Origin: an uncultured virus (IMG/VR IMGVR_UViG_2860815047_000004)
Taxonomy: Duplodnaviria > Heunggongvirae > Uroviricota > Caudoviricetes
Virus record (IMG/VR): IMGVR_UViG_2860815047_000004
DNA: 64,000 nucleotides
Strand: one strand, 5' to 3'
In this document: piece by piece, positions 2,984 to 54,137 of the stretch
Layout: each line of letters starts with the position of its first letter
How positions within the stretch are numbered: position 1 is the first letter of the stretch
Notes under the pieces: generated by a model
Seen by the model: only the letters and a program-made list of their open reading frames with translations
Databases searched by the model: none
Told to the model about the DNA's origin: nothing
Position numbers and translations under genes: made by a program

Positions 2984-3394
2984 ATGAATTGGGTATCTTA
3001 CCCCTCTATTTTACACTTTGCAAATGATGGTATTACAGTAACCTTTCCAGACCTTCCTGGGTGTGTAACCTGTGGATCGAATGACACAGAGGCAATTAGC
3101 ATGGCAAAAGAAGCTTTAGGGCTTCATTTATATGGGTTAGAAATGGACGGAGAGAAGTATCCTGGCCCTTCACCGTTTTCGGAAATTAAGACAGCGGAAA
3201 ATGAAGTTGTGTGCTTGATTGATATACCTATGCATGCATTCCGCGATGAATATAGACGTAAATCAGTCAAGAAAACATTAACTATTCCTGCGTGGTTGAA
3301 TGAAGTGGCTGAAGAAAAGAACATTAATTTTTCTCAGGTGCTGCAGGATACATTAAAAGATAAACTCGGACTAAATATCTTTAAGGCACAATAA
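2984..3394 (+). CDS. hicB: HicB-family antitoxin, orphan
   Basis: YPSI..GITVTFPDLPGCVTCG...EAISMAKEALGLHL HicB motif; C-terminal RHH-like VKKTLTIPAWLNE. Confidence 0.9.
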   Translation: MNWVSYPSILHFANDGITVTFPDLPGCVTCGSNDTEAISMAKEALGLHLYGLEMDGEKYPGPSPFSEIKTAENEVVCLIDIPMHAFRDEYRRKSVKKTLTIPAWLNEVAEEKNINFSQVLQDTLKDKLGLNIFKAQ

Positions 3395-5958: not shown

Positions 5959-7017
5959 ATGGAAGCTCAAAAGAAAGCGTCAACACTAAGGGATTATTCA
6001 ATATACAATAACATAAATAGGTGGTTTGATGAATTAGATTTAAGAAACAGGGATCGAGAAACTGGAGAAATTGAAAAGTCTAATACTAGAGCCACGTATG
6101 AAAGGCATATAAGAGAGTTTTTCAACCACTATGCTGCCAAGGATATTGAATATTTAACTGAGAGTGACCTGGCGATCAAGAAGAGCGACCTGTATGATTA
6201 TCGAACTCATTTGGCTAAAAATAAAAGTAACTCCAATTCAACAATTAACAATAAGATTGCCGCACTGAAAAGTATGATTAAGTATCTTGAATCTGAACAT
6301 GAGTGTGATTCATCTGTATTTAATTTTAGACCTCTTCCAACAGAAAAGAACCCAGCAGGGTCTTTTGAAGGAATATCTGAAGCTGATGAATTTGCTGAGG
6401 CAGCGTATGTTACTGAGCGTCAGAACAGATTAATGAAAAAGATGTTTATTTTGTTTAGTGCACGTACTGGTGGGCGTAAATCAGAGGTGCTTAGAGTTGG
6501 GTGGGATGATATTACTTATTCAGAAAAGCACCAATGCTATCTCGTCAACTTTAAAAAAACTAAGCAAAAAAAGGCTAGGCCAGTTGGAATTTCCACAGCT
6601 TTCTATGAAGAGTTGTTGCTGTTAAAGCAAGAGTATGGGGAACATGAACTGTTATTTCATAAGTTAACAGTTGATTCAATACAGGATATGTGGAATCGCG
6701 TATGTAGAGTTATGGGTATTCCCAAAGAAAGAAAGATAACTCCGCATAGTTTACGCAATACTGCAACAAACTTTTCTTACAGCGTTAATAGTGATATTAA
6801 AAAAGTGGCAGCGTTCTCTGGTCACAGCAATATCAATACTTTAAATGACCATTATTTAGTCAATGAAAGGGATTATTCTCAAGATCCAGGGGTTTTGGTT
6901 GATCAAAAAGAAGACATGTCCTTTTTAGAAGATGTTACCTTAGAGCAATATAAAGAATTCTTTTTAAAATCAGACATGTATATACAGAGTAAACTTAAAA
7001 TGTTTTTGAACAAGTGA
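5959..7017 (+). CDS. yopP: Tyrosine recombinase-family protein YopP/SroD
   Basis: TGGRKSE (R), TKQKK (K), HSLR (HxxR), GHSNINTLNDHY (H, Y). Confidence 0.88.
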   Translation: MEAQKKASTLRDYSIYNNINRWFDELDLRNRDRETGEIEKSNTRATYERHIREFFNHYAAKDIEYLTESDLAIKKSDLYDYRTHLAKNKSNSNSTINNKIAALKSMIKYLESEHECDSSVFNFRPLPTEKNPAGSFEGISEADEFAEAAYVTERQNRLMKKMFILFSARTGGRKSEVLRVGWDDITYSEKHQCYLVNFKKTKQKKARPVGISTAFYEELLLLKQEYGEHELLFHKLTVDSIQDMWNRVCRVMGIPKERKITPHSLRNTATNFSYSVNSDIKKVAAFSGHSNINTLNDHYLVNERDYSQDPGVLVDQKEDMSFLEDVTLEQYKEFFLKSDMYIQSKLKMFLNK

Positions 7018-8463: not shown

Positions 8464-9447
8464 ATGAGTGAAATATATAATGCTGAATTGAAGGAAAAGT
8501 TTTTAGAGAAATACGAAAGTGAAGCAACAAGAAACCATTATTGGCTAAGGCTAAGGGATTTCTCAGCTACAGAAAAAATACTTCAAAAAGACATATTTAA
8601 TTTTTCTTTGGAAGAGCTGCGTACGTTATTTTTCGATTTGGATAGCAAATCTATAGACTCATTAAGAGGAGCACGAGCTGTAATTGGACAATACACAACC
8701 TGGGCAATGGAAAATGGCTTGGCAAACAGTAACATCAACAAAGTGTATCAGATACAGGATGGTGACTTAAAGCAGTTTATAGATAAAAACAAAAAAACAC
8801 TATTCACCAATAAAGAAGTAGAAGAGTATGTTGATTTTATGATTAATTATCAGGATAAGGCCATGATACAGGCTATTTATGAAGGTATAGATGGTTATCA
8901 GCATTCAGAGTTACTGAATTTAACAGGTGACGATTTACTCGATGATAACAAGGTAAAGCTAGTAGATGATAAACATGGTGTAAGAATAATTACTGTAAGC
9001 GATAAATGTTATGAGTTACTTAAGCGTGCTAATGACCAAAGAACATATCATCTTAGCAATGGTTCGCCAGATAGTAGCCTTAAAAACAAATTTGCCACAT
9101 TAGTTAAAAGCGAAAATATTTTTAGGCTAAAATATAAGAGCTCTAATCAGAGTATGAAAGCTGACAAATTTTTAATTCATCGTTCTTTTAGTCAGTTTCA
9201 AAAATTTTTAGAAGAACCCTTCTTTACACCTAAAAATCTTATCAATTCAGGAAAGCTCAACATGGCGTATGCGATATATAAAGAGAAGGGTGAATTAAAA
9301 GTACCTGATTATAAACAAATAACTCGACAATATGGGTTCTTGAATGAAGACGCGGAGTTTAATTCACAAACACTGAGGAAAGTAGTGAATATGGAGAACT
9401 TAGAAAAATATTGTATCAAGTCTGAAGTAATTGAGACTAATTCTTAA
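8464..9447 (+). CDS. yopR: YopR/SroF/MrpR integrase-fold master repressor
   Basis: 327 aa; integrase-like layout lacking catalytic R and HxxR; synteny. Confidence 0.85.
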
Positions 9448-18991: not shown

Positions 18992-19804
18992 TTAGACTCT
19001 CCAGGATTCAAAGGAAGGAATACGGAGTTTGCCATGCTTAGTCTTAAATCTGTGTTTAACCTTACATAAGATCGGTTCTACAAATACATATTCATCAGAT
19101 TCAGACTTTACTTGTTTCATAGAGTGGAACTTACTTCGTTCCGCATTCGGCATGAATTCCATAAATCCAGCTGTTGTACCATCAGGATAAGACAGAAGAA
19201 ACTTTATATCCTCTTTGGTGTAGCCAGTGATAAGCACATCTGTGTAATCATAATTAATCACTTTCAGCCAGCTATGGGAACGTTTATTGATTTCATAAGG
19301 GGAGTTAGCTTTCTTTAGTACGATTCCTTCAAGATTCTTTTCTTTGGCCAGATTAAAGTAAGCTAATCCGTTTCCTTGCAGGCCTTCAATTACAAAGACA
19401 TTATCGTGATCAAGGTTTAGGTCTGAAAGCATGCTCTTACGTTCAGTGAGCGGCTTATTAGCGATTGAATACCCGTCAATATAGATTACATCGAATACAC
19501 AATAAACCACCTTATGAGCTGATTTCTTAGACATAAAGCGTTCCATTACAGCTTCAAAATCAGGAGCACCGCCTGGGGCAGCTACAATGATTTCACCGTC
19601 TAAAACAGTTCCATTGGGTATATCAAGATCCAACAGTTCTGGGAACTTGCTTGTTACTTCATTGTTGTGACGAGTATAAAGCTTTATCTGATCATTAAAC
19701 TTGGAGAGGATCAGTCTAATTCCATCAAACTTCAGCTCGGTAATATAATCATCGTCATCAAATGGCTCTTTTATTGAATGCAATAGCATTGGCGATACAA
19801 ACAA
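18992..19804 (-). CDS. ligB: ATP-dependent DNA ligase
   Basis: ELKFDGIR, LDGEI, VFDVI, EGIVLK, WLKV motifs. Confidence 0.95.
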   Translation of the reverse strand: MFVSPMLLHSIKEPFDDDDYITELKFDGIRLILSKFNDQIKLYTRHNNEVTSKFPELLDLDIPNGTVLDGEIIVAAPGGAPDFEAVMERFMSKKSAHKVVYCVFDVIYIDGYSIANKPLTERKSMLSDLNLDHDNVFVIEGLQGNGLAYFNLAKEKNLEGIVLKKANSPYEINKRSHSWLKVINYDYTDVLITGYTKEDIKFLLSYPDGTTAGFMEFMPNAERSKFHSMKQVKSESDEYVFVEPILCKVKHRFKTKHGKLRIPSFESWRV

Positions 19805-19873
19805 AATATCACCTCCTACTTAGAACATATTAGCTAAGCGGAGATGATATATAAAGCGATATGGCAGTGGTAC

Positions 19874-20548
19874 TTAATGGGATTCAATGAGCTCAGGTGA
19901 ATTGTTTTTAGGTGAATTCACTAAAGATGAAACTTGATAAGCTTCCATGTCATCAGAGTCATACGGTAACAGTAAGTTTTGAAGATAATCAGGATCCGTG
20001 TTTTTGGGGTTTAGCCATTCCTTTTCGTTCTCATCAGTAAGAATGACCGGCATCCGATCATGAATGTCTTCCATAAGCTCATTGGGTTTTGTCGTGATGA
20101 TTGTACAGGTGTATAACTGATTGCCTTCTGGCGTATTCCACTTTTCATATAAGCCTGCAAATGAAAAGAGATTGGAGGATTTGAGCTTAATCCGCATAGG
20201 AATCTTAGTCTTCGGATCGAGACGTTTCCATTCATAAAAACTGTCTGCAGGGATAATGCAGCGTTTGCTTACAAGCGGCTTTCTGAAGCTTGCTTTCTCG
20301 GCCAATGTTTCAGCACGAGCATTAATCATTTTATAGCCGATCTTTTCATCTTTAGCCCAGGGCGGGATAAGACCCCATCTAAGTTTGCCCAGCCGGTTGT
20401 TCGATCCGTCATTAATGATTGTCAGGATGTTTTGTGAAGGAGCAACGTTATAGCTTGGATGGTATTCTTCTTTAGACAAAAATTGATCTATATTGAACTG
20501 TTCGATGATGTCATCAAACTCAGAAAATAAAGTGAACCTGCCACACAT
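19874..20548 (-). CDS. yoqW: SRAP/YedK abasic-site protecting protein
   Basis: MCGRF N-terminus, INARAET, IHDRMPVIL. Confidence 0.95.
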   Translation of the reverse strand: MCGRFTLFSEFDDIIEQFNIDQFLSKEEYHPSYNVAPSQNILTIINDGSNNRLGKLRWGLIPPWAKDEKIGYKMINARAETLAEKASFRKPLVSKRCIIPADSFYEWKRLDPKTKIPMRIKLKSSNLFSFAGLYEKWNTPEGNQLYTCTIITTKPNELMEDIHDRMPVILTDENEKEWLNPKNTDPDYLQNLLLPYDSDDMEAYQVSSLVNSPKNNSPELIESH

Positions 20549-20618
20549 GTTCATCATCCTTTAGGGTTTTTGAATATTGTACAGGCTTGATGCACGAAAA
20601 TCAAAAAGGAGGAATGTG

Positions 20619-27373: not shown

Positions 27374-28345
27374 ATGGCAATCGATATTTTCAATCCTCAG
27401 GTTTCAGTAGTCGCAAAAGGTTTAGAAGGAAAAGTTATTACTATCTATGGTTCTAACAACTTGGGTAAGACAAAACAAAGCACACGAATGACGAAGCCTT
27501 TATACTTGCCATTTGAAAAAGGTTTGAATGCCATCGCAGGCGTTAAATTTATGGCTATTAATAGCTGGGCGGATTTTAAGAAGGTTAATAAACAGTTAAC
27601 CAAAAATGCAGAAAAGGCAAAAGAAACGTATCAGACAATTATTGTTGATGAAGTAGATGCATTTGCTAAATATGCAACCAGATATGTTTGCGAACAATAT
27701 GATGTAGAACGGATTAAAGATGGAAATGATGGGTTTGGTCTTTGGAAAGAGTATGAAACAGAAGTATGGGAAGAAATTAATAAACTGATTGGTGTAGGAT
27801 TCACCGTTATCTTTATTGCTCATGCTGCAGAGGACAAAAAAGGAAAAGTTTATCCTAAGGGTGATAAACGTGTATTGGCCCCTGTTATTGATAACAGTGA
27901 TATTGTACTTTATCTAAGTTCTAATGGTGTTGATGAAGACAGAAAGGTTATCAAATCAAGCGCTTGGTTGGCTGAAACAGAAGAGCACTTTGCACGCAGC
28001 CGTTTCGATTACATTGACACATACCTCCCTGAGTTCACTGCAGAGAGCCTGGAAAAAGCCATCATAGAAGCAGTTGAAAGACAGGAAGAAGCAGAAGGTA
28101 TTATTGCTGTTACATATGAAGAGCAAAAACAAAACAACGCTTCAGAAGAGCTTGATTACGACTCATTGATGGAGCAAATCAAAGAAGTTGGAATTAAGCT
28201 CAATGGAGAAGGACGATTGGAAGAGGTTAATGAGATTACAGAGAAGCATTTAGGCAAGGGAGTAAAAGTGACTGAATGCAGCCGCAAACAAGTAAACGTT
28301 ATGTCTGTAATTTTGGATGACCTAAAAGATCTTCTATCTAAATAA
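27374..28345 (+). CDS. yorG: AAA ATPase, Sak4-like annealing protein
   Basis: GSNNLGKT Walker A, IIVDE Walker B. Confidence 0.88.
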   Translation: MAIDIFNPQVSVVAKGLEGKVITIYGSNNLGKTKQSTRMTKPLYLPFEKGLNAIAGVKFMAINSWADFKKVNKQLTKNAEKAKETYQTIIVDEVDAFAKYATRYVCEQYDVERIKDGNDGFGLWKEYETEVWEEINKLIGVGFTVIFIAHAAEDKKGKVYPKGDKRVLAPVIDNSDIVLYLSSNGVDEDRKVIKSSAWLAETEEHFARSRFDYIDTYLPEFTAESLEKAIIEAVERQEEAEGIIAVTYEEQKQNNASEELDYDSLMEQIKEVGIKLNGEGRLEEVNEITEKHLGKGVKVTECSRKQVNVMSVILDDLKDLLSK

Positions 28346-37239: not shown

Positions 37240-37947
37240 ATGAATAAAAATAAAATAAAAGAACACATTTTTAAGTCCGTTTATGGTATGATGATTTTAA
37301 TTCCCTTAGCCACTTTTTCTTACATAAGTTATGAGCAACATTTACATAAAACAGAGGGAAATGAAGACTCAATAAAAGAATCATTTTATAAGAAGCCTAG
37401 ACAAATTAGGATCCCATCAAGTGAAAATATTGTCTTACAGCTTTTTAAAAAAGCTCAAACGAACAAAGAACAACAATTAAAAAGGCATACAGAGAAGATT
37501 ATCTCAACAAAACTCATTAAACCCAAGAAAAGTAAGAAAAGGCACAGGAAGGGAGGTGAGACGGTAAAGCATAAACTTTTTAAGAGTAAAAATAAAATAT
37601 ATAAACACAGAAAAGAAAACAAGACGCCGGCAGCAAAGAAAACCATCCAGGTTAAGCTGAGTGCTTATATTGCCCACTGCCAAGAAGGATGCACAGGAAC
37701 AACTAGAACAGGTGTTGATGTTACTCAATCAATCTATTACAAAGGGTATCGTGTTATTGCAACCGATCCAAGTGTTATTCCTTTGAATTCAATTGTTGAA
37801 GTAAGAATTGGTGGAAATACATTTAAAGCAATTGCAATTGATACTGGAGGCGCAATTATTGGGAATAAAGTGGACTTGCTCGTAGCAACCGAGCGTGACG
37901 CAGTTAATTTTGGTAAACAAAGTGGGACAATCTCGATTATTAGTTAG
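37240..37947 (+). CDS. yorM: 3D-domain cell-wall protein
   Basis: IATDPSVIPL, AIDTGGAI, VDLL; N-terminal TM. Confidence 0.9.
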   Translation: MNKNKIKEHIFKSVYGMMILIPLATFSYISYEQHLHKTEGNEDSIKESFYKKPRQIRIPSSENIVLQLFKKAQTNKEQQLKRHTEKIISTKLIKPKKSKKRHRKGGETVKHKLFKSKNKIYKHRKENKTPAAKKTIQVKLSAYIAHCQEGCTGTTRTGVDVTQSIYYKGYRVIATDPSVIPLNSIVEVRIGGNTFKAIAIDTGGAIIGNKVDLLVATERDAVNFGKQSGTISIIS

Positions 37948-38876: not shown

Positions 38877-39833
38877 ATGACAAAAGAGCTTTTAGGAAGT
38901 TTGGAATTAAACAGAATTTATCAATTCGATGTATTAAAAGGATTGAAATTAGTACCATCTAATTGTATCGATCTAATAATTGCAGACCCACCTTATTTTG
39001 GGGTAGTTAAAGATAAATGGGACAATCAATGGGGCAATGATTATGATAAATTTAAAGATTGGATTTGTGAGATAATAAAAGAATTTGATAGAGTACTGAA
39101 GGTAAACGGTACTTTATATTTATATGGATGGTTTAATAACATGTTGCCTCTGTATGATGAAATCAAGAAAAACTTTTTTCTTAGACAGAATATCACTGTT
39201 CATAAGGGTGTAAAATCTATTGCTGGAAGAACATCAAGTAAGCTTAAACAGTTTCCAACAGCAACAGAATATCTATGGATTTTAACTAAGCAAGATACAG
39301 TAGGCAGATTGAAGGATGGTTCGAGTGTTCTTGATCCAATACATAATGTTCTTCAACAAGGAATCAAGGCACTTGACTTAAAAATGAAAGACATAAATAA
39401 AATTTGGGGACATCCAATCAATTCAGGAATAGCAGGACATTATTTCAGAGATAAGTCTCAACCTGCATTTATTACAAAAGAGAAATATAATCAATTAATT
39501 TCTCACGGTTGTTCTTTTGAAAAGACTTGGGAGGAATTAAAACAAATGTATGAAGATAACCGGATTAAATTTAATCTCCCTAGGGGAGTGACAGATGTCT
39601 GGGAAATTGATTTTTACAAAGATGAAAGATATGGACACAGCACTCAAAAACCACTTGATTTGTGTGAGCGAATTATTACATCTAGTTCAAATCAACATGA
39701 TAATATTCTAATACCTTTTGTTGGATCGGGAAGTGAATGTGTAGCAGCTCAAAAACTAAACCGTAATTATTTAGGGTTTGAAATTGATTTTGATTACATA
39801 AAGATCGCTAACAAGCGTCTAGATTGCATTTGA
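38877..39833 (+). CDS. Beta-class N4-C/N6-A DNA methyltransferase
   Basis: IIADPPY (motif IV), HSTQKP, PFVGSGS (motif I). Confidence 0.93.
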   Translation: MTKELLGSLELNRIYQFDVLKGLKLVPSNCIDLIIADPPYFGVVKDKWDNQWGNDYDKFKDWICEIIKEFDRVLKVNGTLYLYGWFNNMLPLYDEIKKNFFLRQNITVHKGVKSIAGRTSSKLKQFPTATEYLWILTKQDTVGRLKDGSSVLDPIHNVLQQGIKALDLKMKDINKIWGHPINSGIAGHYFRDKSQPAFITKEKYNQLISHGCSFEKTWEELKQMYEDNRIKFNLPRGVTDVWEIDFYKDERYGHSTQKPLDLCERIITSSSNQHDNILIPFVGSGSECVAAQKLNRNYLGFEIDFDYIKIANKRLDCI

Positions 39834-39907
39834 TTTTGTATTTAAAAGAGGAATATGACATAATTTGTAGAACTTATTACGGATAGAATAATTGGGAGTG
39901 TTGTATT

Positions 39908-40486
39908 ATGTCCGTAAGAATTTTACATTGTGGTGAATCTATAGAGAATTATAATATTTGCATAGATAATAAGATTGTTGGATTTACTAAAAGAACTGCA
40001 ACAATAGGTGATTTAATTTATATCTCTGTAAAGAAGGATAATGAAAGCTTCTGCGGAGTCCGAGGCGTAATTGCTGAGATTACAGATGAAAGACCTTGGA
40101 GAGACGAAGATAATTATGTGCAATCTTTTCACTTGAAGGATATGGAGTTTTGCAATCCGTTTCCCCTAAAAGTCCTTGCTGAAATCGGAGGGAAATATTG
40201 GGGCGCGAAATATATGCAATCCTCGAAAGCAATTAAAGACAAAGAAGCCATAAGTTTGTTAAATAGTAACTTTTTAAAACCAAATGAAAAGTCTTTACAT
40301 AAATCTTTAAAAGCAACATTTGAAGAAATAGATACTGAATTATCCCCAATCGAAATCATGGGCACCTATACAACCATAAAATTTCACAGTGAACAACATA
40401 AATCCAGAGGATTGGAAACCCTTGTTAATAAGAATTTTTATAATTTATTTGATGATTATCAGAAAAGATCGTCTATTCATCATTAG
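39908..40486 (+). CDS. EVE/PUA-like domain protein, N-terminal part of a possible nuclease
   Basis: ENYNIC..GDLIYI..GVRGVI..PW pattern. Confidence 0.55.
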   Translation: MSVRILHCGESIENYNICIDNKIVGFTKRTATIGDLIYISVKKDNESFCGVRGVIAEITDERPWRDEDNYVQSFHLKDMEFCNPFPLKVLAEIGGKYWGAKYMQSSKAIKDKEAISLLNSNFLKPNEKSLHKSLKATFEEIDTELSPIEIMGTYTTIKFHSEQHKSRGLETLVNKNFYNLFDDYQKRSSIHH

Positions 40487-40494
40487 GGAGTGAA

Positions 40495-41076
40495 ATGTCT
40501 AATGGAATGGTCAAGGGGATAAGTAGCATCCCAGATGCTTTGCTAATAAACTTCAACAAACGTAACATTGCTTCACCATTTCAACTGAATTTAATAGAAT
40601 ACGAATGTTATGGACAAAATAAAACAAAGCTAATGGATAAATTCAACTACCTGAACGGTCATATTATACCTCAATTAATGAGGTTTGCATCTGCATTTAG
40701 CATCGCTACAGATAGCAGTTTAAGAGACTCTACAATAAAATCTTGGGTTGAAAAAATAATTGAACACATATATGCAGATGAGGATATCATAATAAAGGTA
40801 TCTGGTTGGATTAGGGAGATACACCCTGATATCAATGAACAAAAAATTTCATTGGAATTACATAAATTGCTAACAAAATCTTTTCATGAAAACCTGAGAA
40901 TTATGTTAATAATAGATGAGTTAACAACTGATCAAAAAGACACAATAAAAAATATTATTGGCTCATTTAAACTGGGCAGTGAAAAAAACATTGAGTTTTT
41001 AGGATTTGTAGTAAGGCTAGAACAGAGAATTAATGTGATCAATGATAATGAATATGCATTATCTCTACAGAAATAA
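40495..41076 (+). CDS. Putative PD-(D/E)XK nuclease domain
   Basis: IPDALL..LIEYE..QLMRF..MLIIDE. Confidence 0.55.
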   Translation: MSNGMVKGISSIPDALLINFNKRNIASPFQLNLIEYECYGQNKTKLMDKFNYLNGHIIPQLMRFASAFSIATDSSLRDSTIKSWVEKIIEHIYADEDIIIKVSGWIREIHPDINEQKISLELHKLLTKSFHENLRIMLIIDELTTDQKDTIKNIIGSFKLGSEKNIEFLGFVVRLEQRINVINDNEYALSLQK

Positions 41077-41177
41077 ATTTTGACAAGGATGGAGGTGCTC
41101 AAAAAGAGTACCTTTTAAATTCAATATTTTGAGAATGAAAATAAAATATCTCTTTTATAGAGAAAGGGGAGACTGTA

Positions 41178-41729
41178 ATGGGTTATAGACATTATATGTA
41201 TAAAATCAGCAAGGAACTTGTAAACGAAATAAAATCAATGAATTACGATGAATTGTCCAAAAAGTTCGGTGTAATAGGAGAAGAAGGTTATTTCTATATA
41301 GGTAACCTGCCTAAAGAGGAAATTTGGGAGTTTGGGAAGTTGTATTGGGATGATACAGCCGACCGCATTTATTCAAAGGGACACCCCCTCTTTGAAAGAG
41401 AAGAAGTTATGAATGAATTATCGGATTATGTTCCATATATTGTTGGTAAAGAAGGGCTTGAAGAAGCTATTGAAATTTATAAAAACAAAGTCATTGCAAT
41501 GTACGAGAACTTGCTTATTGATGATAAAAATGGAACTGCTTCAGTAAAACAAGAGCAGCATATTAAGAACAACTTATCTGAGTGGACAAGAGGATGGGCG
41601 TTAAATACGGATATTAATGATTCATGGCTAACATCTTCTTGGAAATACGAATACAGCATTTTTGAGCTGGTCAGATTATTAAAAACCATAGATTTTGAGA
41701 AAGAGACAATATTATTTTACGGTTGGTGA
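41178..41729 (+). CDS. Hypothetical phage protein
   Basis: 183 aa; bounded by TAAAA-N6-TTTTA sites. Confidence 0.8.
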   Translation: MGYRHYMYKISKELVNEIKSMNYDELSKKFGVIGEEGYFYIGNLPKEEIWEFGKLYWDDTADRIYSKGHPLFEREEVMNELSDYVPYIVGKEGLEEAIEIYKNKVIAMYENLLIDDKNGTASVKQEQHIKNNLSEWTRGWALNTDINDSWLTSSWKYEYSIFELVRLLKTIDFEKETILFYGW

Positions 41730-41945
41730 TCTAAATAAAAGATCAATTTTATTTAATCCTTTTAATTTTTGTTCATCTAATTCTAAAATATCACCTAGTT
41801 GAATTGTGAATGGATAGTTCCTTTGTGTTACTGCGATACTCGATTTTTCGATTTCACTCGCATAATATACATAATCAGTAATGCCAATTTTATTTAGGGC
41901 AATCTGTCCGCAGCTCATTCCGTCAAATAAACTTAGTACTTTCAC
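41712..41945 (-). CDS. N-terminal part (motifs I-III) of a C5-cytosine methyltransferase, inverted
   Basis: KVLSLFDGMSCG, YASEIEK, LGDI; RBS GGAGTG. Confidence 0.9.
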   Translation of the reverse strand: MKVLSLFDGMSCGQIALNKIGITDYVYYASEIEKSSIAVTQRNYPFTIQLGDILELDEQKLKGLNKIDLLFRSPTVK

Positions 41946-41994
41946 TAAATCACTCCATATAATTTATTTTTATTCTAAATAAAATTGATCTTTT
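41737..41994. mobile_element. Invertible segment flanked by perfect 19-bp inverted repeats
   Basis: AAAAGATCAATTTTATTTA (41737-41755) and TAAATAAAATTGATCTTTT (41976-41994). Confidence 0.9.
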
Positions 41995-42703
41995 GCTAGG
42001 CGGGAGTCCATGTCAGAACCTCACTATAACTGTAGCTGATCGAGAAGAGCATTTTACAGGATTGGCAGGAGATAAATCAAAATTGTTCTTTGAGTATGTG
42101 AGGGCCTTAAAAACAGTTAAGCCCAGGTATTTTTTATATGAAAATGTTGAGAGCATGAAAGAGAAGGATAAAGAAACGATTACTAAGAACTTAGGCGTTG
42201 AACCAATAATGATAGACAGTGGACTACTTTCTGCACAGGAAAGAAAAAGATATTACTGGACTAACATTCCAAACGTTAAACAACCCAATGAAAGGCACCA
42301 GGTCTTAGCAGATATTCTTGAGGAAAACGTTGATGAAAAATATTATTACAATCTTAATTATGATTTTTATGGGTTGCATAAGCGAGTAGCTGCAAGGCTC
42401 GATTTATACAACTATGATATTTTACAAAGGGTATACAGTCCTCATTTTAAAGCTCCAACCTTAACAGCATGTAGAGGTGGTCATAAGCAAAAGAAAGTTA
42501 TACATAATGATAGAGTTAGAAAGCTTACTCCTCTGGAATACGAGAGACTGCAAACGGTGCCTGAAGGTTATACAAAAGGTGTTGCAGACAGTCATAGATA
42601 CAACATGCTTGGGGACGGATGGACAGTTGATGTAATAGCTCATATTTTAAGCTACGCTGATTTTTCAACGTCAAAGGGAGTGCAAACAGAAGCGGCAATT
42701 TAA
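41993..42703 (+). CDS. C-terminal part (motifs IV-X) of the C5-cytosine methyltransferase
   Basis: GGSPCQ, YENV, QERKR, RLQTVP, LGDGW; no RBS of its own. Confidence 0.92.
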   Translation: MLGGSPCQNLTITVADREEHFTGLAGDKSKLFFEYVRALKTVKPRYFLYENVESMKEKDKETITKNLGVEPIMIDSGLLSAQERKRYYWTNIPNVKQPNERHQVLADILEENVDEKYYYNLNYDFYGLHKRVAARLDLYNYDILQRVYSPHFKAPTLTACRGGHKQKKVIHNDRVRKLTPLEYERLQTVPEGYTKGVADSHRYNMLGDGWTVDVIAHILSYADFSTSKGVQTEAAI

Positions 42704-42744
42704 ATAAAATTTGTCTTTTAAAGAGTAAAAATAAAATACGAGAG

Positions 42745-49214: not shown

Positions 49215-49606
49215 TTTTTACATATGAAAGCAAGACAGGTAACGTGAAAAGGTTTGCCCAAGCATTACAAAGGGAGTTAAACTTCGATGTCATTGAAATT
49301 ACAGATGACTTAATCGTTGAAGAAGAATTCATACATATTACATATACGATAGGCTTTGGGGAAGTACCTGAAAGGACTTTGAATTTTATTATTAAGAATA
49401 AAAATAAAATAAAAGGTGTTGTTGTGAGTGGTAACAAGGTTTGGGGTGATAACTATGGTTTAGCTGGGGACAAGCTCTCAGCAATGTTCCACGTACCATT
49501 GTTATTAAAGTTTGAACTAAGTGGAACAAAACAAGATTTGCAGAAGATTAATCGGGAGGTACAACTTATTGACAAACACAATACCAAAGTGGATCAAGCT
49601 CAATAA
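49211..49606 (+). CDS. nrdI: Class Ib RNR flavodoxin
   Basis: SKTGNVKRF, SGNKVWG, KFELSG. Confidence 0.95.
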   Translation: MIFTYESKTGNVKRFAQALQRELNFDVIEITDDLIVEEEFIHITYTIGFGEVPERTLNFIIKNKNKIKGVVVSGNKVWGDNYGLAGDKLSAMFHVPLLLKFELSGTKQDLQKINREVQLIDKHNTKVDQAQ

Positions 49607-51920
49607 TGAGATCATGATTCAGAAAGACGGTAAGTTTCAATTTGAGAAGGATAAGGAGGCAGTGCACAGCTACTTTGTTGATTACATTAATCAAAATACA
49701 GTCTTTTTCCATGACTTAAAAGAGAAACTGGATTATCTGATTAAAAATGATTATTACGAAGAAGAATTCTTAAGCGAATACACATTTGAGCAGATTAAAT
49801 CGATTTTTAAACTTGCTTACAGTTACAAATTCAGATTCCCATCTTTCATGAGTGCCTTTAAGTTCTACAATGACTATGCATTGAAGACAAACGACAAAAC
49901 AAAGATCCTGGAGAGATATGAGGATCGCGTCTCAATTGTAGCTTTATTTTTCGCAGGTGGAGTCTATGAGAAAGCGGTTAAGAATGTGCGTACTATGATG
50001 AAACAAGAGTATCAGCCGGCAACGCCTACTTTCCTTAATGCAGGTCGTAAGCGAAGAGGAGAAATGGTGAGCTGCTTCCTACTTGAAGTGGGAGACAGTT
50101 TGAATGATATTTCACGGGCGATCGATATTTCCATGCAGCTGTCTAAATTGGGCGGCGGTGTTGCATTAAACCTAAGCAAATTACGAGCCAAGGGTGAAGC
50201 AATTAAAGACGTAGAGAATGCAACTAAAGGTGTCGTAGGTGTTATGAAGCTATTGGATAATGCTTTTAGATATGCCGATCAAATGGGTTGATTTGGCCCC
50301 TTTCGTCAGAAATGGCGATCGAAAACCTCTTTAATTCATGGGAACTCCTACAGGGACAATCATGAGCGAAGCAAGACTAAAGTCTTGAACGTGCAACGAC
50401 TAGCCGAAAGGCGTAGGCTGCAAGCTATTGGCAGTCGAAACAGGAGGCATCCTAAAAGGATGAAGATATAGTCTAACCTTCATGGCAACATGAAGCAGCC
50501 GTCTGGCGGGGCGTGCTTAGCGAACACGTCTGAATGGTCTGCAAAGACAAGGGTCTGGAGCAGCTTATCTAAGCGTGTTCCATCCAGATATTACAGACTT
50601 CCTGGATACCAAAAAAATCTCAGCAGATGAAGATGTCCGGGTTAAAACACTGTCTATTGGTGTAGTTCTTCCTGATAAATTTATTGAATTGGCAAGAGAA
50701 GATAAGGATTTTTACATGTTCTATCCTCATTCAGTTTACAAAGAATATGGGCAGTATCTTGATGAGATGGACATCAATAAAATGTATGATGTGCTTGTTG
50801 AAAACCCTAGGGTTAGAAAAGCAAAAGGAAATGCTCGAAAGCTGTTGGAGCAATTGGCCATTTTAAGAAGTGAATCTGGATATCCTTATATCATGTTTGC
50901 TGACAATGTAAATAAAGTGCATCCAATGAACATATTTCAAAAGTGAAGTTTTCTAATTTGTGCTCTGAAGTCCTCCAAGCATCACAAGTGTCAGTCTATA
51001 CAGATTACGATCAGGAAGATGAAATTGGATTAGATATTTCATGTAATCTTGGATCCATGAACATTGTAAATGCAATGAATAATCAATCAGTTGCTTCAAC
51101 GGTTAGAATAGCAATTGACTCATTGACAACTGTTACAAGAAAAACAAACATTGTTAATGCCCCAGCTGTTGCGAGAGCAAATACACTAATGCGTTCAATT
51201 GGTCTAGGGCAGATGAACCTGCATGGTTTTCTAGCTCAAAATAAAATTGCTTATGAAAGTGAAGAAGCTAAGGACTTTGCAAATACATACTTTATGATGG
51301 TTAACTTCTACTCCTTGCAGCGTTCAATGGAAATTGCAAAAGAAACAGGGGAGACATACTACAAGTTTGATGGGTCGACCTACAAATCAGGTGAGTATTT
51401 TGATAAGTACGTGACAAATGATTATAGCCCTAAACATGAAAAGGTTAAAAGCCTGTTTGGAGATCAACATATTCCTAATATTGAAGATTGGATGAAGCTT
51501 AAAGAGGATGTAATGAAATATGGCTTGTATCATTCGTATAGGCAGGCTATTGCACCTACAGGAAGCATCTCATACGTTCAATCATCTACGGCCGGCGTAA
51601 TGCCTATTATGGAGAGAATCGAGGAACGTACATACGGAAACAGTAAGACATATTATCCAATGCCAGGTTTATCGGCTCAGAATTGGTTCTTTTATAAGGA
51701 AGCATACGACATGGATATGTTTAAGGTAGTTGATCTTATTGCCACTATTCAGCAGCACGTCGACCAAGGCATTTCGTTTACGCTGTTTTTGAAAGATACG
51801 ATGACGACGCGCGATCTAAACCGGATTGACTTATACGCGCATCATAAGGGAATCAAGACGCTTTATTATGCACGGACTAAAGATACGACACAGGAGGGGT
51901 GTTTGTCATGCGCGGTTTAA
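49569..51920 (+). CDS. nrdE: Class Ib RNR alpha subunit; exons 49569-50288 and 50542-51920; -1 frameshift at about 50925
   Basis: PATPTFLNAG, VSCFL, spliced MG|QRQGSG, FSNLCSE, SCNLGS, APTGSIS, CLSC. Confidence 0.93.
50289..50541 (+). ncRNA. Group I intron in nrdE (253 nt, no ORF)
   Basis: Exon ends in U; P1 GGGT/GCCC; AAGATATAGTCTA core; terminal G; removal restores the frame. Confidence 0.92.
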
Positions 51921-52150
51921 GTGAGGAGAGACAGAAGAGTATACGACGTGGAGACATAATTATCTACTACTTCGGGGGTACATTAATTAATGCGAAAGTT
52001 ATTCAAGCGTATGAAGGTGGGTACCTCGAAGTTCGCCATAAAGACTTCCCGATACTGAACTGCTTATTAGGATACCGGGACGAGATCAAGACATCGGAAG
52101 TGTTGGGTGTAGTTAAGCATAAAGGCAAACGGGGAAAGGAGGACGAATAA
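51899..52150 (+). CDS. Hypothetical protein between nrdE and nrdF
   Basis: 83-aa ORF, RBS GGAGGG. Confidence 0.6.
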   Translation: MFVMRGLSEERQKSIRRGDIIIYYFGGTLINAKVIQAYEGGYLEVRHKDFPILNCLLGYRDEIKTSEVLGVVKHKGKRGKEDE

Positions 52151-54137
52151 TTGACGAACGCAAACGAAATCCATACGGCGGCCGATTGGTCGCGGCACGA
52201 AGACGACTTTACCCAAATGTTTTACAACCAAAACGTAAAGCAGTTTTGGCTTCCGGAAGAGATCGCATTAAACGGCGATCTTCTCACTTGGAAGTATTTG
52301 GGTAAAAATGAGCAGTATACGTACATGAAGGTGCTCGCCGGCCTGACACTGCTTGATACAGAGCAGGGGAACACGGGCATGCCGATTGTGGCCGAGCACG
52401 TCGAAGGCCATCAGCGGAAAGCGGTTCTTAATTTCATGGCGATGATGGAAAACGCGGTGCACGCGAAGTCTTACAGCAACATCTTTCTAACTTTGGCTCC
52501 AACCGAGAAGATCAATGAAGTCTTCGAATGGGTGAAAAACAATAGGTTTCTTCAAAAGAAAGCAAGAACAATTGTTTCAATTTATAAAGCAGTTCAGAAA
52601 AACGATGATATTTCCTTATTCAAAGCAATGGTTGCATCTGTGTTTCTGGAAAGTTTCCTTTTCTACTCAGGGTTTTATTATCCACTTTACTTTTATGGAC
52701 AAGGGAAGCTCATGCAGAGCGGGGAAATTGTGAATTTGATTATCCGTGACGAAGCCATTAAGTGCTAGTGGCATTTAGCAGTAATGTTAAATGAAAACCT
52801 ATCTAAAAAGGGGAAATCTTATAGCTAAGATAATCCTTTGCTAAATTCTAATCATCATTAAATTCAATATTTAGGAGTGTTGCCTTGTATTATGTCTATA
52901 TGATAATGAATAAACAAAATAAGAAGATTTACATTGGCTTAACCAAAAATGTTAACAACGCTGACGATAGATTTAAACAACATATTCGCTATTTAAAAGG
53001 AAACTATCATCATAATCATAAATTGCAAAGAGACTTTAACTTGCATAAATGCACTGATATGTATACACATCACTTATTATGCAAATGTTCTAGCATCAAA
53101 CTTGCTGAAAAAATGGAGAAGTTTTTCATTGCATACTATAACAGTAAATATTGTGGATTTAACCTAAATGACGGCGGGCTTTCAAATAAAGGATACAAGC
53201 AATCTGATTATGCAAAAAAGGTTGCAAGTGAAGTTCACTCTAAGCTAATTGGAGAAAAAAATCCTTTCTTTGGAAGACGACATTCTGAGAAAACAAAAAT
53301 GATTATTTCTAAAAAGAACAAAGGGAGAAATAAAGGTATCCCTAAGAGCGATAGTCATATAAAGAAAATGATTGAAAACAATGCTAGAGCAAAAAAAGTC
53401 TTCGTTGGCGGTCAAATATACAGCAGTTGTTCGCAAGCTCAATTACATACGGGCATAGACAGGAAGAAAATATCAAAGCTTGCATCAGACGATTCAATAA
53501 CAAACATATACTTTATAAAATAAAAACAATTTTAATGATGATTAGATAAATGCCCAACGACTATTCCATTGGCGGTGGAATTCCGCAACAGAAGTAGGGC
53601 GCAAGTGATTGGCGTGGGTGAGAATCCCTTAAATCGAAACGGTAGGAATCCTAAATTAGGATTGTGATATAGTCTGCTCTGCATGGCGACATGCAGCTGT
53701 GGTTAGTCCACGCTTTAAGTATAGCGAACTTAAGGGAACATCAAGGACATGGAACATATATCGGTTTATTAGCTCAAGAGATATATAAGAAACAAACGCC
53801 TCAGAAGCAAAAAGAACTGTATGAATGGGCTTTATGCTTGCTACAAGAGCTTTATGAAAATGAATTGGAGTATACAGAAGATGTTTATGATCAGGTTGGT
53901 TTAGCTCCAGATGTAAAGAAATTCATCAGATACAACGCAAATAAAGCATTAAACAACTTGGGCTTTGATCATCTGTTCGAGGAAGAAGACGTTAACCCAA
54001 TCGTTATTAATGGATTGAGTACTAAAACTAAGTCGCATGACTTCTTTAGCCAAAAAGGGAATGGGTACAAAAAAGCAACGGTGGAGCCATTAAAGGATTC
54101 AGATTTCATTTTTACCGAGAAAGGATGTATTCAATGA
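52151..54137 (+). CDS. nrdF: Class Ib RNR beta subunit; exons 52151-52758 and 53747-54137 (332 aa)
   Basis: [15 protein letters not shown], spliced RDEAI|HG, HDFFS. Confidence 0.94.
52759..53746 (+). ncRNA. Group I intron in nrdF (988 nt) carrying a homing endonuclease
   Basis: P1 GCCAT/GTGGC with U.G pair; GATATAGTCT core; terminal G; splice rebuilds an ATA codon. Confidence 0.92.
52885..53523 (+). CDS. Intron-encoded GIY-YIG homing endonuclease with NUMOD3 motif
   Basis: [31 protein letters not shown]. Confidence 0.9.
   Translation: MYYVYMIMNKQNKKIYIGLTKNVNNADDRFKQHIRYLKGNYHHNHKLQRDFNLHKCTDMYTHHLLCKCSSIKLAEKMEKFFIAYYNSKYCGFNLNDGGLSNKGYKQSDYAKKVASEVHSKLIGEKNPFFGRRHSEKTKMIISKKNKGRNKGIPKSDSHIKKMIENNARAKKVFVGGQIYSSCSQAQLHTGIDRKKISKLASDDSITNIYFIK

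Follow-up and report, generated by a model that had tools for sequence, protein, structure and literature searches.

Is a DNA methyltransferase gene that lies in two pieces on opposite strands a broken gene, or one that can be switched off and on again? This question is raised by a 64,000-nucleotide (nt) stretch of DNA from an uncultured virus (IMG/VR record IMGVR_UViG_2860815047_000004; the whole stretch is hereafter referred to as the window), which is an SPbeta-like Bacillus prophage, a temperate arbitrium phage of the Bacillus subtilis group. Within positions 41712–42703, it carries what is, as predicted from its sequence, an orphan C5 cytosine DNA methyltransferase (MTase) gene. An earlier note on this DNA had claimed that the start-bearing half of the gene lies on the minus strand and the rest on the plus strand, that perfect 19-base pair (bp) inverted repeats flank the displaced piece, and that the gene has been switched OFF by inversion. 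Here we compare the locus with its relatives and with known invertible systems, and we consider it probable that it is an ON/OFF inversion switch of the prophage MTase that is at present in the OFF state.

The MTase profile (Pfam PF00145, curated cut-off 22 bits) is divided between two open reading frames (ORFs), as the earlier note had it. The N-terminal fragment, an ORF of 77 amino acids (aa) on the minus strand (41712–41945), comprises MTase residues 1–70 followed by a 7-aa read-through tail, FRSPTVK, and matches profile positions 1–68 (E 2.5e-6, 27.6 bits); its final Leu codon takes one base, 41736, from beyond the repeat. The C-terminal fragment (41993–42703, plus strand) has 236 codons, begins from a TTG with LLGGSPCQ, spans residues 70–305 and accounts for the remainder of the profile (E 1.1e-22, 81.3 bits). 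No Shine–Dalgarno sequence precedes its TTG. The minus-strand fragment contains LFDGMSCG, which we take to be the AdoMet-binding motif I, and the plus-strand fragment contains GGSPCQ and YENVES, presumably the catalytic Pro-Cys motif IV and the ENV motif. A natural intact twin of the enzyme (P0123, 305 aa) scores 122.6 bits against the same profile, its residues 1–135 aligning to profile positions 1–125 continuously across the junction. A scripted flip of 41737–41994 yields a 918-nt frame of 305 codons with its sole stop at the end, and this gene has the same 918 nt as the gene of a related locus (L011) that is intact in nature; its product matches P0123 in both parts. Flipping thus restores an in-frame 305-aa enzyme, and with no difference from the intact L011 copy, neither half has decayed; both had been claimed.

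Among solved structures, the C-terminal fragment matches mammalian DNMT3A/3B best, in their catalytic domains (E 8e-17 to 1e-14), with the bacterial M.HhaI and M.HaeIII structures trailing far behind (E 1e-6 to 1e-4), and some sources label relatives 'DNA (cytosine-5)-methyltransferase 3A'. A 303-aa variant from the B. velezensis/amyloliquefaciens group (P0121, 12 contigs) has the same N terminus and a different C-terminal tail (…DFQRQREHKQKR).

The repeats reported in the earlier note were recovered by a repeat finder as two 19-nt arms, 100% complementary and spaced 220 nt apart, which border an invertible unit of 258 bp (41737–41994). The left arm (41737–41755, AAAAGATCAATTTTATTTA on the plus strand) is where, in the OFF arrangement, the upstream flank meets the inverted end of the N-terminal coding piece, and the right arm (41976–41994, TAAATAAAATTGATCTTTT on the plus strand) is where the promoter side meets codon 71 onward. 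The 220-bp inner piece (41756–41975), read on the minus strand, contains MTase codons 1 to ~64, the GTG start (41943–41945), the ribosome-binding site (RBS) GGAG (41953–41956, eight bases 5′ of the start) and a promoter-type element (~41955–41975). Promoter, RBS and first codons are therefore inverted relative to codons 71–305, in agreement with the proposed OFF state. The pair is the longest inverted repeat with arms at most 1 kb apart in the window, and none of 200 simulated windows (first-order Markov) contained one of 19 bp, the longest being 17 bp, in 3 of the 200.

Does the inversion belong to this genome alone? A search with the C-terminal fragment found seven close relatives at the DNA level (92–100% aa identity), six of them viral contigs and one a B. 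rugosus genome, and the orientation comparison covered 31 loci, searched with both fragments. In four of the seven (L011, L012, L013 and L016), the N-terminal part lies directly 5′ on the same strand and the gene is intact; in the other three (L014, L015 and L090), it is inverted at the coordinates of the window. The 24 more distant loci include no inverted gene: 22 are collinear, L020 has its N-terminal part ~1 kb upstream, and L094 has none. The repeat is kept in all eight close loci (window included), being complete (19 of 19 positions) in five of them; L014, L015 and L090 have 17 perfect bases and, at the inner end, a single mismatch. The window and L011, identical over 918 nt once orientation is normalised, are in opposite states and have unlike upstream flanks, so that both orientations of a segment bordered by inverted repeats occur in an otherwise identical gene sequence; L012 and an isolate contig of run X11 have the intact gene in the window's own upstream context.

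In three groups of alleles, whose members have the same 235 aa in the C part and the same 69 aa in the N part, both states occur. In the first, the window and P0130 are split and L011 and P0123 intact; in the second, L014, P0122 and P0131 are split and P0124 intact; and in the third, L090 and P0128 are split and P0125 intact. Because each identical-allele group contains intact and split members, at least three independent flips would be required to account for these sequences. Two further OFF alleles, L015 and P0129, have no ON twin among the sampled sequences. The 90% protein cluster of the enzyme has 47 members, of which 40 were read, and the states of 15 are listed; among the members listed, 8 intact sequences (303–305 aa) occur on 49 contigs and 5 C-terminal fragments (236–239 aa) on 22 contigs, and 2 are N-terminal fragments. 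Species named among the cluster members are B. subtilis, B. velezensis, B. rugosus and B. inaquosorum.

This distribution bears on the simplest explanation of the split gene, namely an artefact of assembly or one accident confined to this genome. Short inverted repeats can mislead assemblers whose word length is below the repeat length, but 19 bp is below the word lengths usually used in assembly, and the OFF arrangement recurs across many assemblies made independently, among them contigs >4 Mb and three named species, and in three further DNA loci. Because many independent assemblies show each orientation, the artefact that the earlier note had allowed for is excluded, and we regard this explanation as a whole as barely credible. 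The note had left the choice between a phase-variable switch and a recent single recombination event, and had proposed comparing the orientation in related prophages. With the inversion shared by three of seven relatives and three allele groups in mixed state, the single-event alternative is contradicted at the level of the family and the switch is favoured by recurrence.

What do the arms consist of? The region 41953–41994 of the window matches, on the opposite strand and with 95% identity, the sequence just 5′ of the MTase genes of SPbeta, phi3T and rho11s. In rho11s (X05242), a promoter and an RBS are annotated in this region, and in H2 (M72412) the depositors annotated a −35 at 23–27, inside the equivalent of the arm, and a −10 at 47–52, between the arm and the RBS. 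The arm 19-mer is found 5′ of the MTase gene exactly in SPbeta and rho11s and at 18 of 19 positions in H2. On the strength of the upstream-region matches, these annotations and the shared 19-mer, we identify one arm as the upstream portion of the promoter that the MTase genes of the SPbeta group have conserved.

The other arm is coding sequence, for LNKIDLL, immediately 5′ of the catalytic GGSPCQ. At the corresponding position, taken by coordinate without re-alignment, ten more distant homologs (35–72% aa identity) match only 5–14 of the 19 bases and have Gly, Pro, Lys, Gln or Asp in place of the Asn of this clade. Furthermore, of eight more distant loci, seven are without an inverted repeat of ≥11 nt at the site and one has unrelated 11-mers only. 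Given these poor matches to the coding arm and the distant loci that lack the repeat, the perfect repeat is, by sequence comparison, a derived feature of the SPbeta-borne clade of this MTase.

The promoter arm and the RBS are separated by a divergent version of a promoter-type element. This element is close to AAGAGTAAAAATAAAATA, and the window has 17 copies of it with ≤2 mismatches, all on the plus strand (0.08 expected); they include copies at 37582, 42721 and 44872, and the element is also found in G001, the nearest provirus record. Within the part of SPbeta that was examined, the sole close match to the element is at mtbP, there is none at yorM, and the yosA–yorZ intergenic region has only a 3-mismatch match. 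As it matches SPbeta at mtbP and not at yorM, the dispersed element is probably of promoter type and not SPBRE, the site bound by the phage repressor MrpR (see below).

We propose that recombination between the arms flips the inner piece. In the ON state, promoter, RBS and all 305 codons would be collinear with the operon and would give the 305-aa enzyme; in the OFF state, the promoter would drive only the 77-aa stub on the opposite strand, towards the upstream gene, and codons 71–305 would be left without promoter, RBS or proper start. The promoter −35 would lie in the arm and hence have the same sequence on both sides. Since the arms survive a flip unchanged, the reverse reaction would have the same substrate, and the flip may be reversible. 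The likely benefit would be to hedge bets between two kinds of host, one restricting DNA that is unmethylated and the other DNA that is methylated, or, alternatively, to avoid methylation in the lysogen; the enzyme may thus have an epigenetic or anti-restriction role.

This scheme assumes that a split gene gives no activity. Both fragments are intact ORFs, and two-subunit and artificially bisected C5 MTases exist, so that the 77-aa N-terminal and 236-aa C-terminal fragments might assemble in trans and inversion would leave the activity on. However, the C-terminal fragment would have to be made from a TTG with neither a Shine–Dalgarno sequence nor a promoter of its own, and the read-through tails of the N-terminal fragment vary by genome (four different tails for the 70-aa allele of the window), so there is no conserved junction product. 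A working split enzyme seems to us very improbable.

More weight attaches to the explanation that the inversions are recurrent, one-way losses of the gene at a fragile site, in which the 19-bp repeat, as a hot spot of mutation, would break the gene again and again without any programme and without reversal; the OFF copies would then be dead ends, or be favoured where the methylase is costly. The state of the flipped copies bears on this. With orientation normalised, all eight close genes have 305 codons without an internal stop, and none of the four flipped genes seen as DNA (the window, L014, L015 and L090) has a stop or frameshift, which speaks against a history of simple loss. The inverted L014, L015 and L090, which form a second subgroup, differ pairwise by a dS of 0.137–0.164, with dN/dS of 0.12–0.15 in both the N and C parts, and two of these three OFF genomes have an identical intact twin at the protein level. 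The sequences mainly show that the flips are recent relative to point mutation; that OFF copies are under selection does not follow.

The arms speak against loss as well. They persist after the flip, in full (19 of 19 positions) in the window and as 17 bases with a single mismatch in the three inverted relatives, so that the back reaction is possible as far as its substrate is concerned. The coding arm is perfectly kept in all eight loci although it is derived, down to a changed amino acid, whereas a purely harmful repeat would be expected to vanish by synonymous change.

Several observations nevertheless weigh against a reversible switch, and some of them are what one-way loss would predict. 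Wherever a partner of an OFF allele was sampled, the OFF allele proved identical to an ON one, which points to recent flips, and since OFF alleles have identical ON twins, the low dN/dS may mirror evolution in the ON state before those flips. Three or more one-way flips from ON to OFF would explain the same data. Mixed orientation within one flanking context was not seen in any single clone or sample, as judged from the contigs of X1 and X11, two of four runs and the ones that contain the locus: the food metagenome X1 has intact-type and inverted-type left junctions, which belong to two phage variants because their upstream flanks differ. The share of about one-third of copies in the OFF state is rough, because contig counts may include resequenced or clonal strains. 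A consensus promoter scan missed the annotated promoter, with 7 promoter-like sites against 8.1 expected, and found no terminator. No invertase or recombinase gene adjoins the switch, a small serine invertase is absent from the window and from five related provirus records, and 19 bp is short for RecA-type recombination. On balance we judge one-way loss unlikely, and we retain the inversion switch as the probable explanation.

If the segment is a switch, what turns it? We put even odds on an exchange between the arms through short-homology recombination or by template switching during replication; a site-specific tyrosine recombinase is possible but somewhat less likely, an orphan YopP-like protein being the first candidate, and some other catalyst takes the small remainder. 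The recombination genes of the phage include one for an AAA_24 protein (27374–28345) and those next to it. Large serine integrases are found at the record ends in two of the five related provirus records. The YopP-like tyrosine recombinase of the window (352 aa; 5959–7017, plus strand; PF00589) is a candidate invertase in which the box-I Arg, the H-x-x-R motif, the second His and the terminal Tyr are present and align with the XerC-like chain 4a8e, although this match is weak (E 0.0088). A homolog is found in all five related provirus records, and yopP has no assigned function and is active in lysogens according to one of three transcriptome data sets, as far as the available sources describe it.

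In the more specific proposal that this protein recognises the arms and inverts the segment, which changes only the catalyst of the switch, the arm itself has a core-like layout (ATAAAA, a 6-bp asymmetric spacer and TTTT). A degenerate copy of the arm downstream of the gene deviates from it in the central 6 bp, and no inversion with that copy was seen in the eight close loci. Flips are moreover frequent despite arms of only 19 bp. Against this stand the 35 kb between the yopP-like gene and the switch, the frequency of AT-rich partial palindromes in the DNA of the window, and the distribution of the recombinase, which is kept across SPbeta-like phages, including H2, SPbeta and rho11s, whose MTases have no coding arm. 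Because phages without the coding arm keep the recombinase, its conserved role must be something else, a point that counts against the switch as well. We therefore hold a dedicated YopP-like invertase to be doubtful. We would call speculative, and improbable as a whole, the extended version in which the arm is the recombination site of this orphan recombinase, the coding sequence was recoded (Gly/Pro to Asn plus synonymous changes) to mimic the promoter site in inverted orientation, and the lysogeny machinery toggles methylation.

The MrpR (YopR)-type master repressor of the window (8464–9447, plus strand; PF22823 and PF22822) also has a recombinase fold. According to the available text of PMC10516654, MrpR binds SPBRE sites and does not have the residues that a working recombinase requires, and the ten MrpR-bound promoters listed there do not include mtbP. 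MrpR as the invertase, with the arm as an SPBRE operator, was set aside on these two grounds.

A third, degenerate copy of the arm (42701–42719, plus strand; 17 of 19 positions) overlaps the MTase stop codon and would be inverted relative to the promoter arm in the ON state. After the MTase genes of SPbeta, rho11s and H2 there is an equivalent copy that matches at 16 of 19 positions, and such downstream copies are located at L008 206–224, L009 2649–2667 and L010 1575–1593. In the SPbeta group, the MTase cassette is thus framed by the promoter site on one side and the degenerate inverted copy on the other, whichever MTase lies within, and the two sites may serve as seams for the exchange of MTase genes between SPbeta-group phages. 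An inversion of the whole cassette, between promoter arm and downstream copy, was not seen in any of the eight close loci.

On the other side of the gene, the upstream flanks of the eight close loci fall into five unrelated classes, and similarity begins at the outer edge of the left arm; because five unrelated flanks abut the arm, this edge is a mosaic boundary. A module at 41142–41736, with a 183-aa ORF (41178–41729) that has no Pfam match, is present in the window, L012 and X11 and not in L011, L013 and L016. It is bordered by a 25-nt, 80% inverted pair (41139–41163 and 41730–41754) that overlaps the left arm.

How does the locus compare with known invertible systems? It can be placed among the partial intergenic, gene-altering invertons described before (Milman et al. 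2023, PMC9881135; Chanin et al. 2023, PMC10028968), in which, as the accessible text of the two catalogues describes, one arm is likewise intergenic and the other intragenic, and inversion likewise alters the encoded product; it would work like fimS of Escherichia coli with the 5′ end of the gene included. DNA methylases and restriction–modification components are enriched inverton targets in Milman Table 1 (PMC9881135). However, the methylases listed as targets in the available part of that source are N6, Type I, IIG or BREX enzymes with swapped domains, whereas here a phage C5 orphan MTase would simply be turned ON or OFF, with no recombinase gene nearby. In the supplements of both catalogues, 'Bacillus subtilis', 'Bacillus velezensis' and 'cytosine' were not found, nor was 'methyltransferase' in the supplements of one and 'C-5' in those of the other; these tables may give accession numbers only. 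Within the same limit, and in the literature as far as it was accessible, no description of an inversion in an SPbeta-group MTase gene was found.

Like this locus, fimS is a small promoter-bearing segment (314 bp) with short inverted repeats that joins a gene to its promoter or cuts it off (10.1101/2022.09.20.508701). Unlike fimS, which carries the promoter only, the segment described here also holds the RBS and 70 codons, so that the OFF state would truncate the protein as well. For fimS, dedicated recombinases, FimB and FimE, are encoded alongside, whereas none adjoins the MTase locus. Phasevarions and the Type I hsdS 'epigenetic invertons' (PMC7672463, PMC4948785 and PMC10123105) resemble the proposed switch in that a DNA methylase switches states stochastically, but they rely on simple-sequence-repeat slippage (Type III/I) or on invertase-driven hsdS shuffling, and no C5 or phage-borne orphan MTase is described in the accessible portions of those papers.

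The MTase cassette of the SPbeta group (mtbP, and its counterparts in phi3T, rho11s and H2) occupies the same slot and has the same arm-bearing promoter and the same degenerate copy after the stop codon. MtbP methylates GGCC and thereby protects the phage genome, according to the available part of PMC8270828. By contrast with the window enzyme, a different MTase of 305 aa, the SPbeta-group enzymes are multispecific MTases (~443 aa in SPbeta, 503 aa in rho11s and H2), and no internal copy of the arm with ≤4 mismatches is present in the MTase genes of SPbeta, rho11s and H2, the internal match in H2 being only ~10 bp. What is new at this locus is the recurrence of intact and inverted states with at least three flips and a derived coding arm; its place in the family of the model phage SPbeta and the lack of an adjoining invertase add to its interest.

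The assignment of the window to the SPbeta-like phages rests on AimR (E 3.7e-97) together with a lysogeny module of the yopP–yopQ–mrpR type and replication and nucleotide-metabolism genes of the SPbeta type. Profile searches found a Phage_integrase protein, a DndB-like protein and MrpR domains, as well as YopX, YoqO, a PolC-like polymerase, split ribonucleotide reductase (RNR) genes, ThyA and dihydrofolate reductase (DHFR). The DNA of the window matches SPbeta, phi3T and rho11s, has a GC content of ~35% and bears nearly all its genes on the plus strand. G001 is without this MTase and has in common with the window only the downstream region and dispersed elements. The INPHARED phage collection contains no close copy of the MTase, only short matches to its flanks and to distant MTases, and a metagenome scan for the right-hand junction, which is common to ON and OFF, gave no match.

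Elsewhere in the window, a second DNA methylase gene (N6_N4_Mtase, 318 aa; 38877–39833) lies 2 kb upstream of the C5 MTase and is followed by two ORFs of 192 and 193 aa without a Pfam match; the region 38877–41076 may be a variable modification or defence island between a thymidylate-kinase-like gene and the C5 MTase. In the region 49521–54137, the RNR large subunit is encoded in three ORFs (49521–50291, 50575–50946 and 50943–51920) and the small subunit in two (52151–52768 and 53691–54137), which lie around a GIY-YIG/NUMOD3 endonuclease ORF (52885–53523), an arrangement presumably akin to that of the introns in the RNR genes of SPbeta. The endonuclease ORF is flanked by the second-longest inverted repeat of the window, which is perfect over 16 bp (52847–52862 and 53531–53546). 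A HicB-like antitoxin ORF (2984–3394) is located immediately 5′ of aimR, and the few minus-strand genes of the window include, at 18992–20557, an SOS-response-associated peptidase (SRAP; 19874–20557) and an ATP-dependent DNA ligase.

Roughly one-third of the sampled genomes with this prophage methylase hold it in the flipped form, for which annotation pipelines report two unrelated fragments (236 aa and 70–85 aa), not a switchable gene. The system measures 258 bp and belongs to a tractable phage–host pair; a synonymous change to one of its arms could fix it as ON or OFF, and it offers a concrete test of the function of the conserved YopP-like recombinase. Should YopP prove to be the catalyst, the arms would be the first YopP substrate and the locus a tractable model of a phage-encoded switch for epigenetic bet-hedging. 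Given a reversible inversion, a temperate phage whose host is the best-studied Gram-positive model would be able to hedge between hosts that cut unmethylated DNA and hosts that cut methylated DNA or, alternatively, to keep its lysogen unmethylated.

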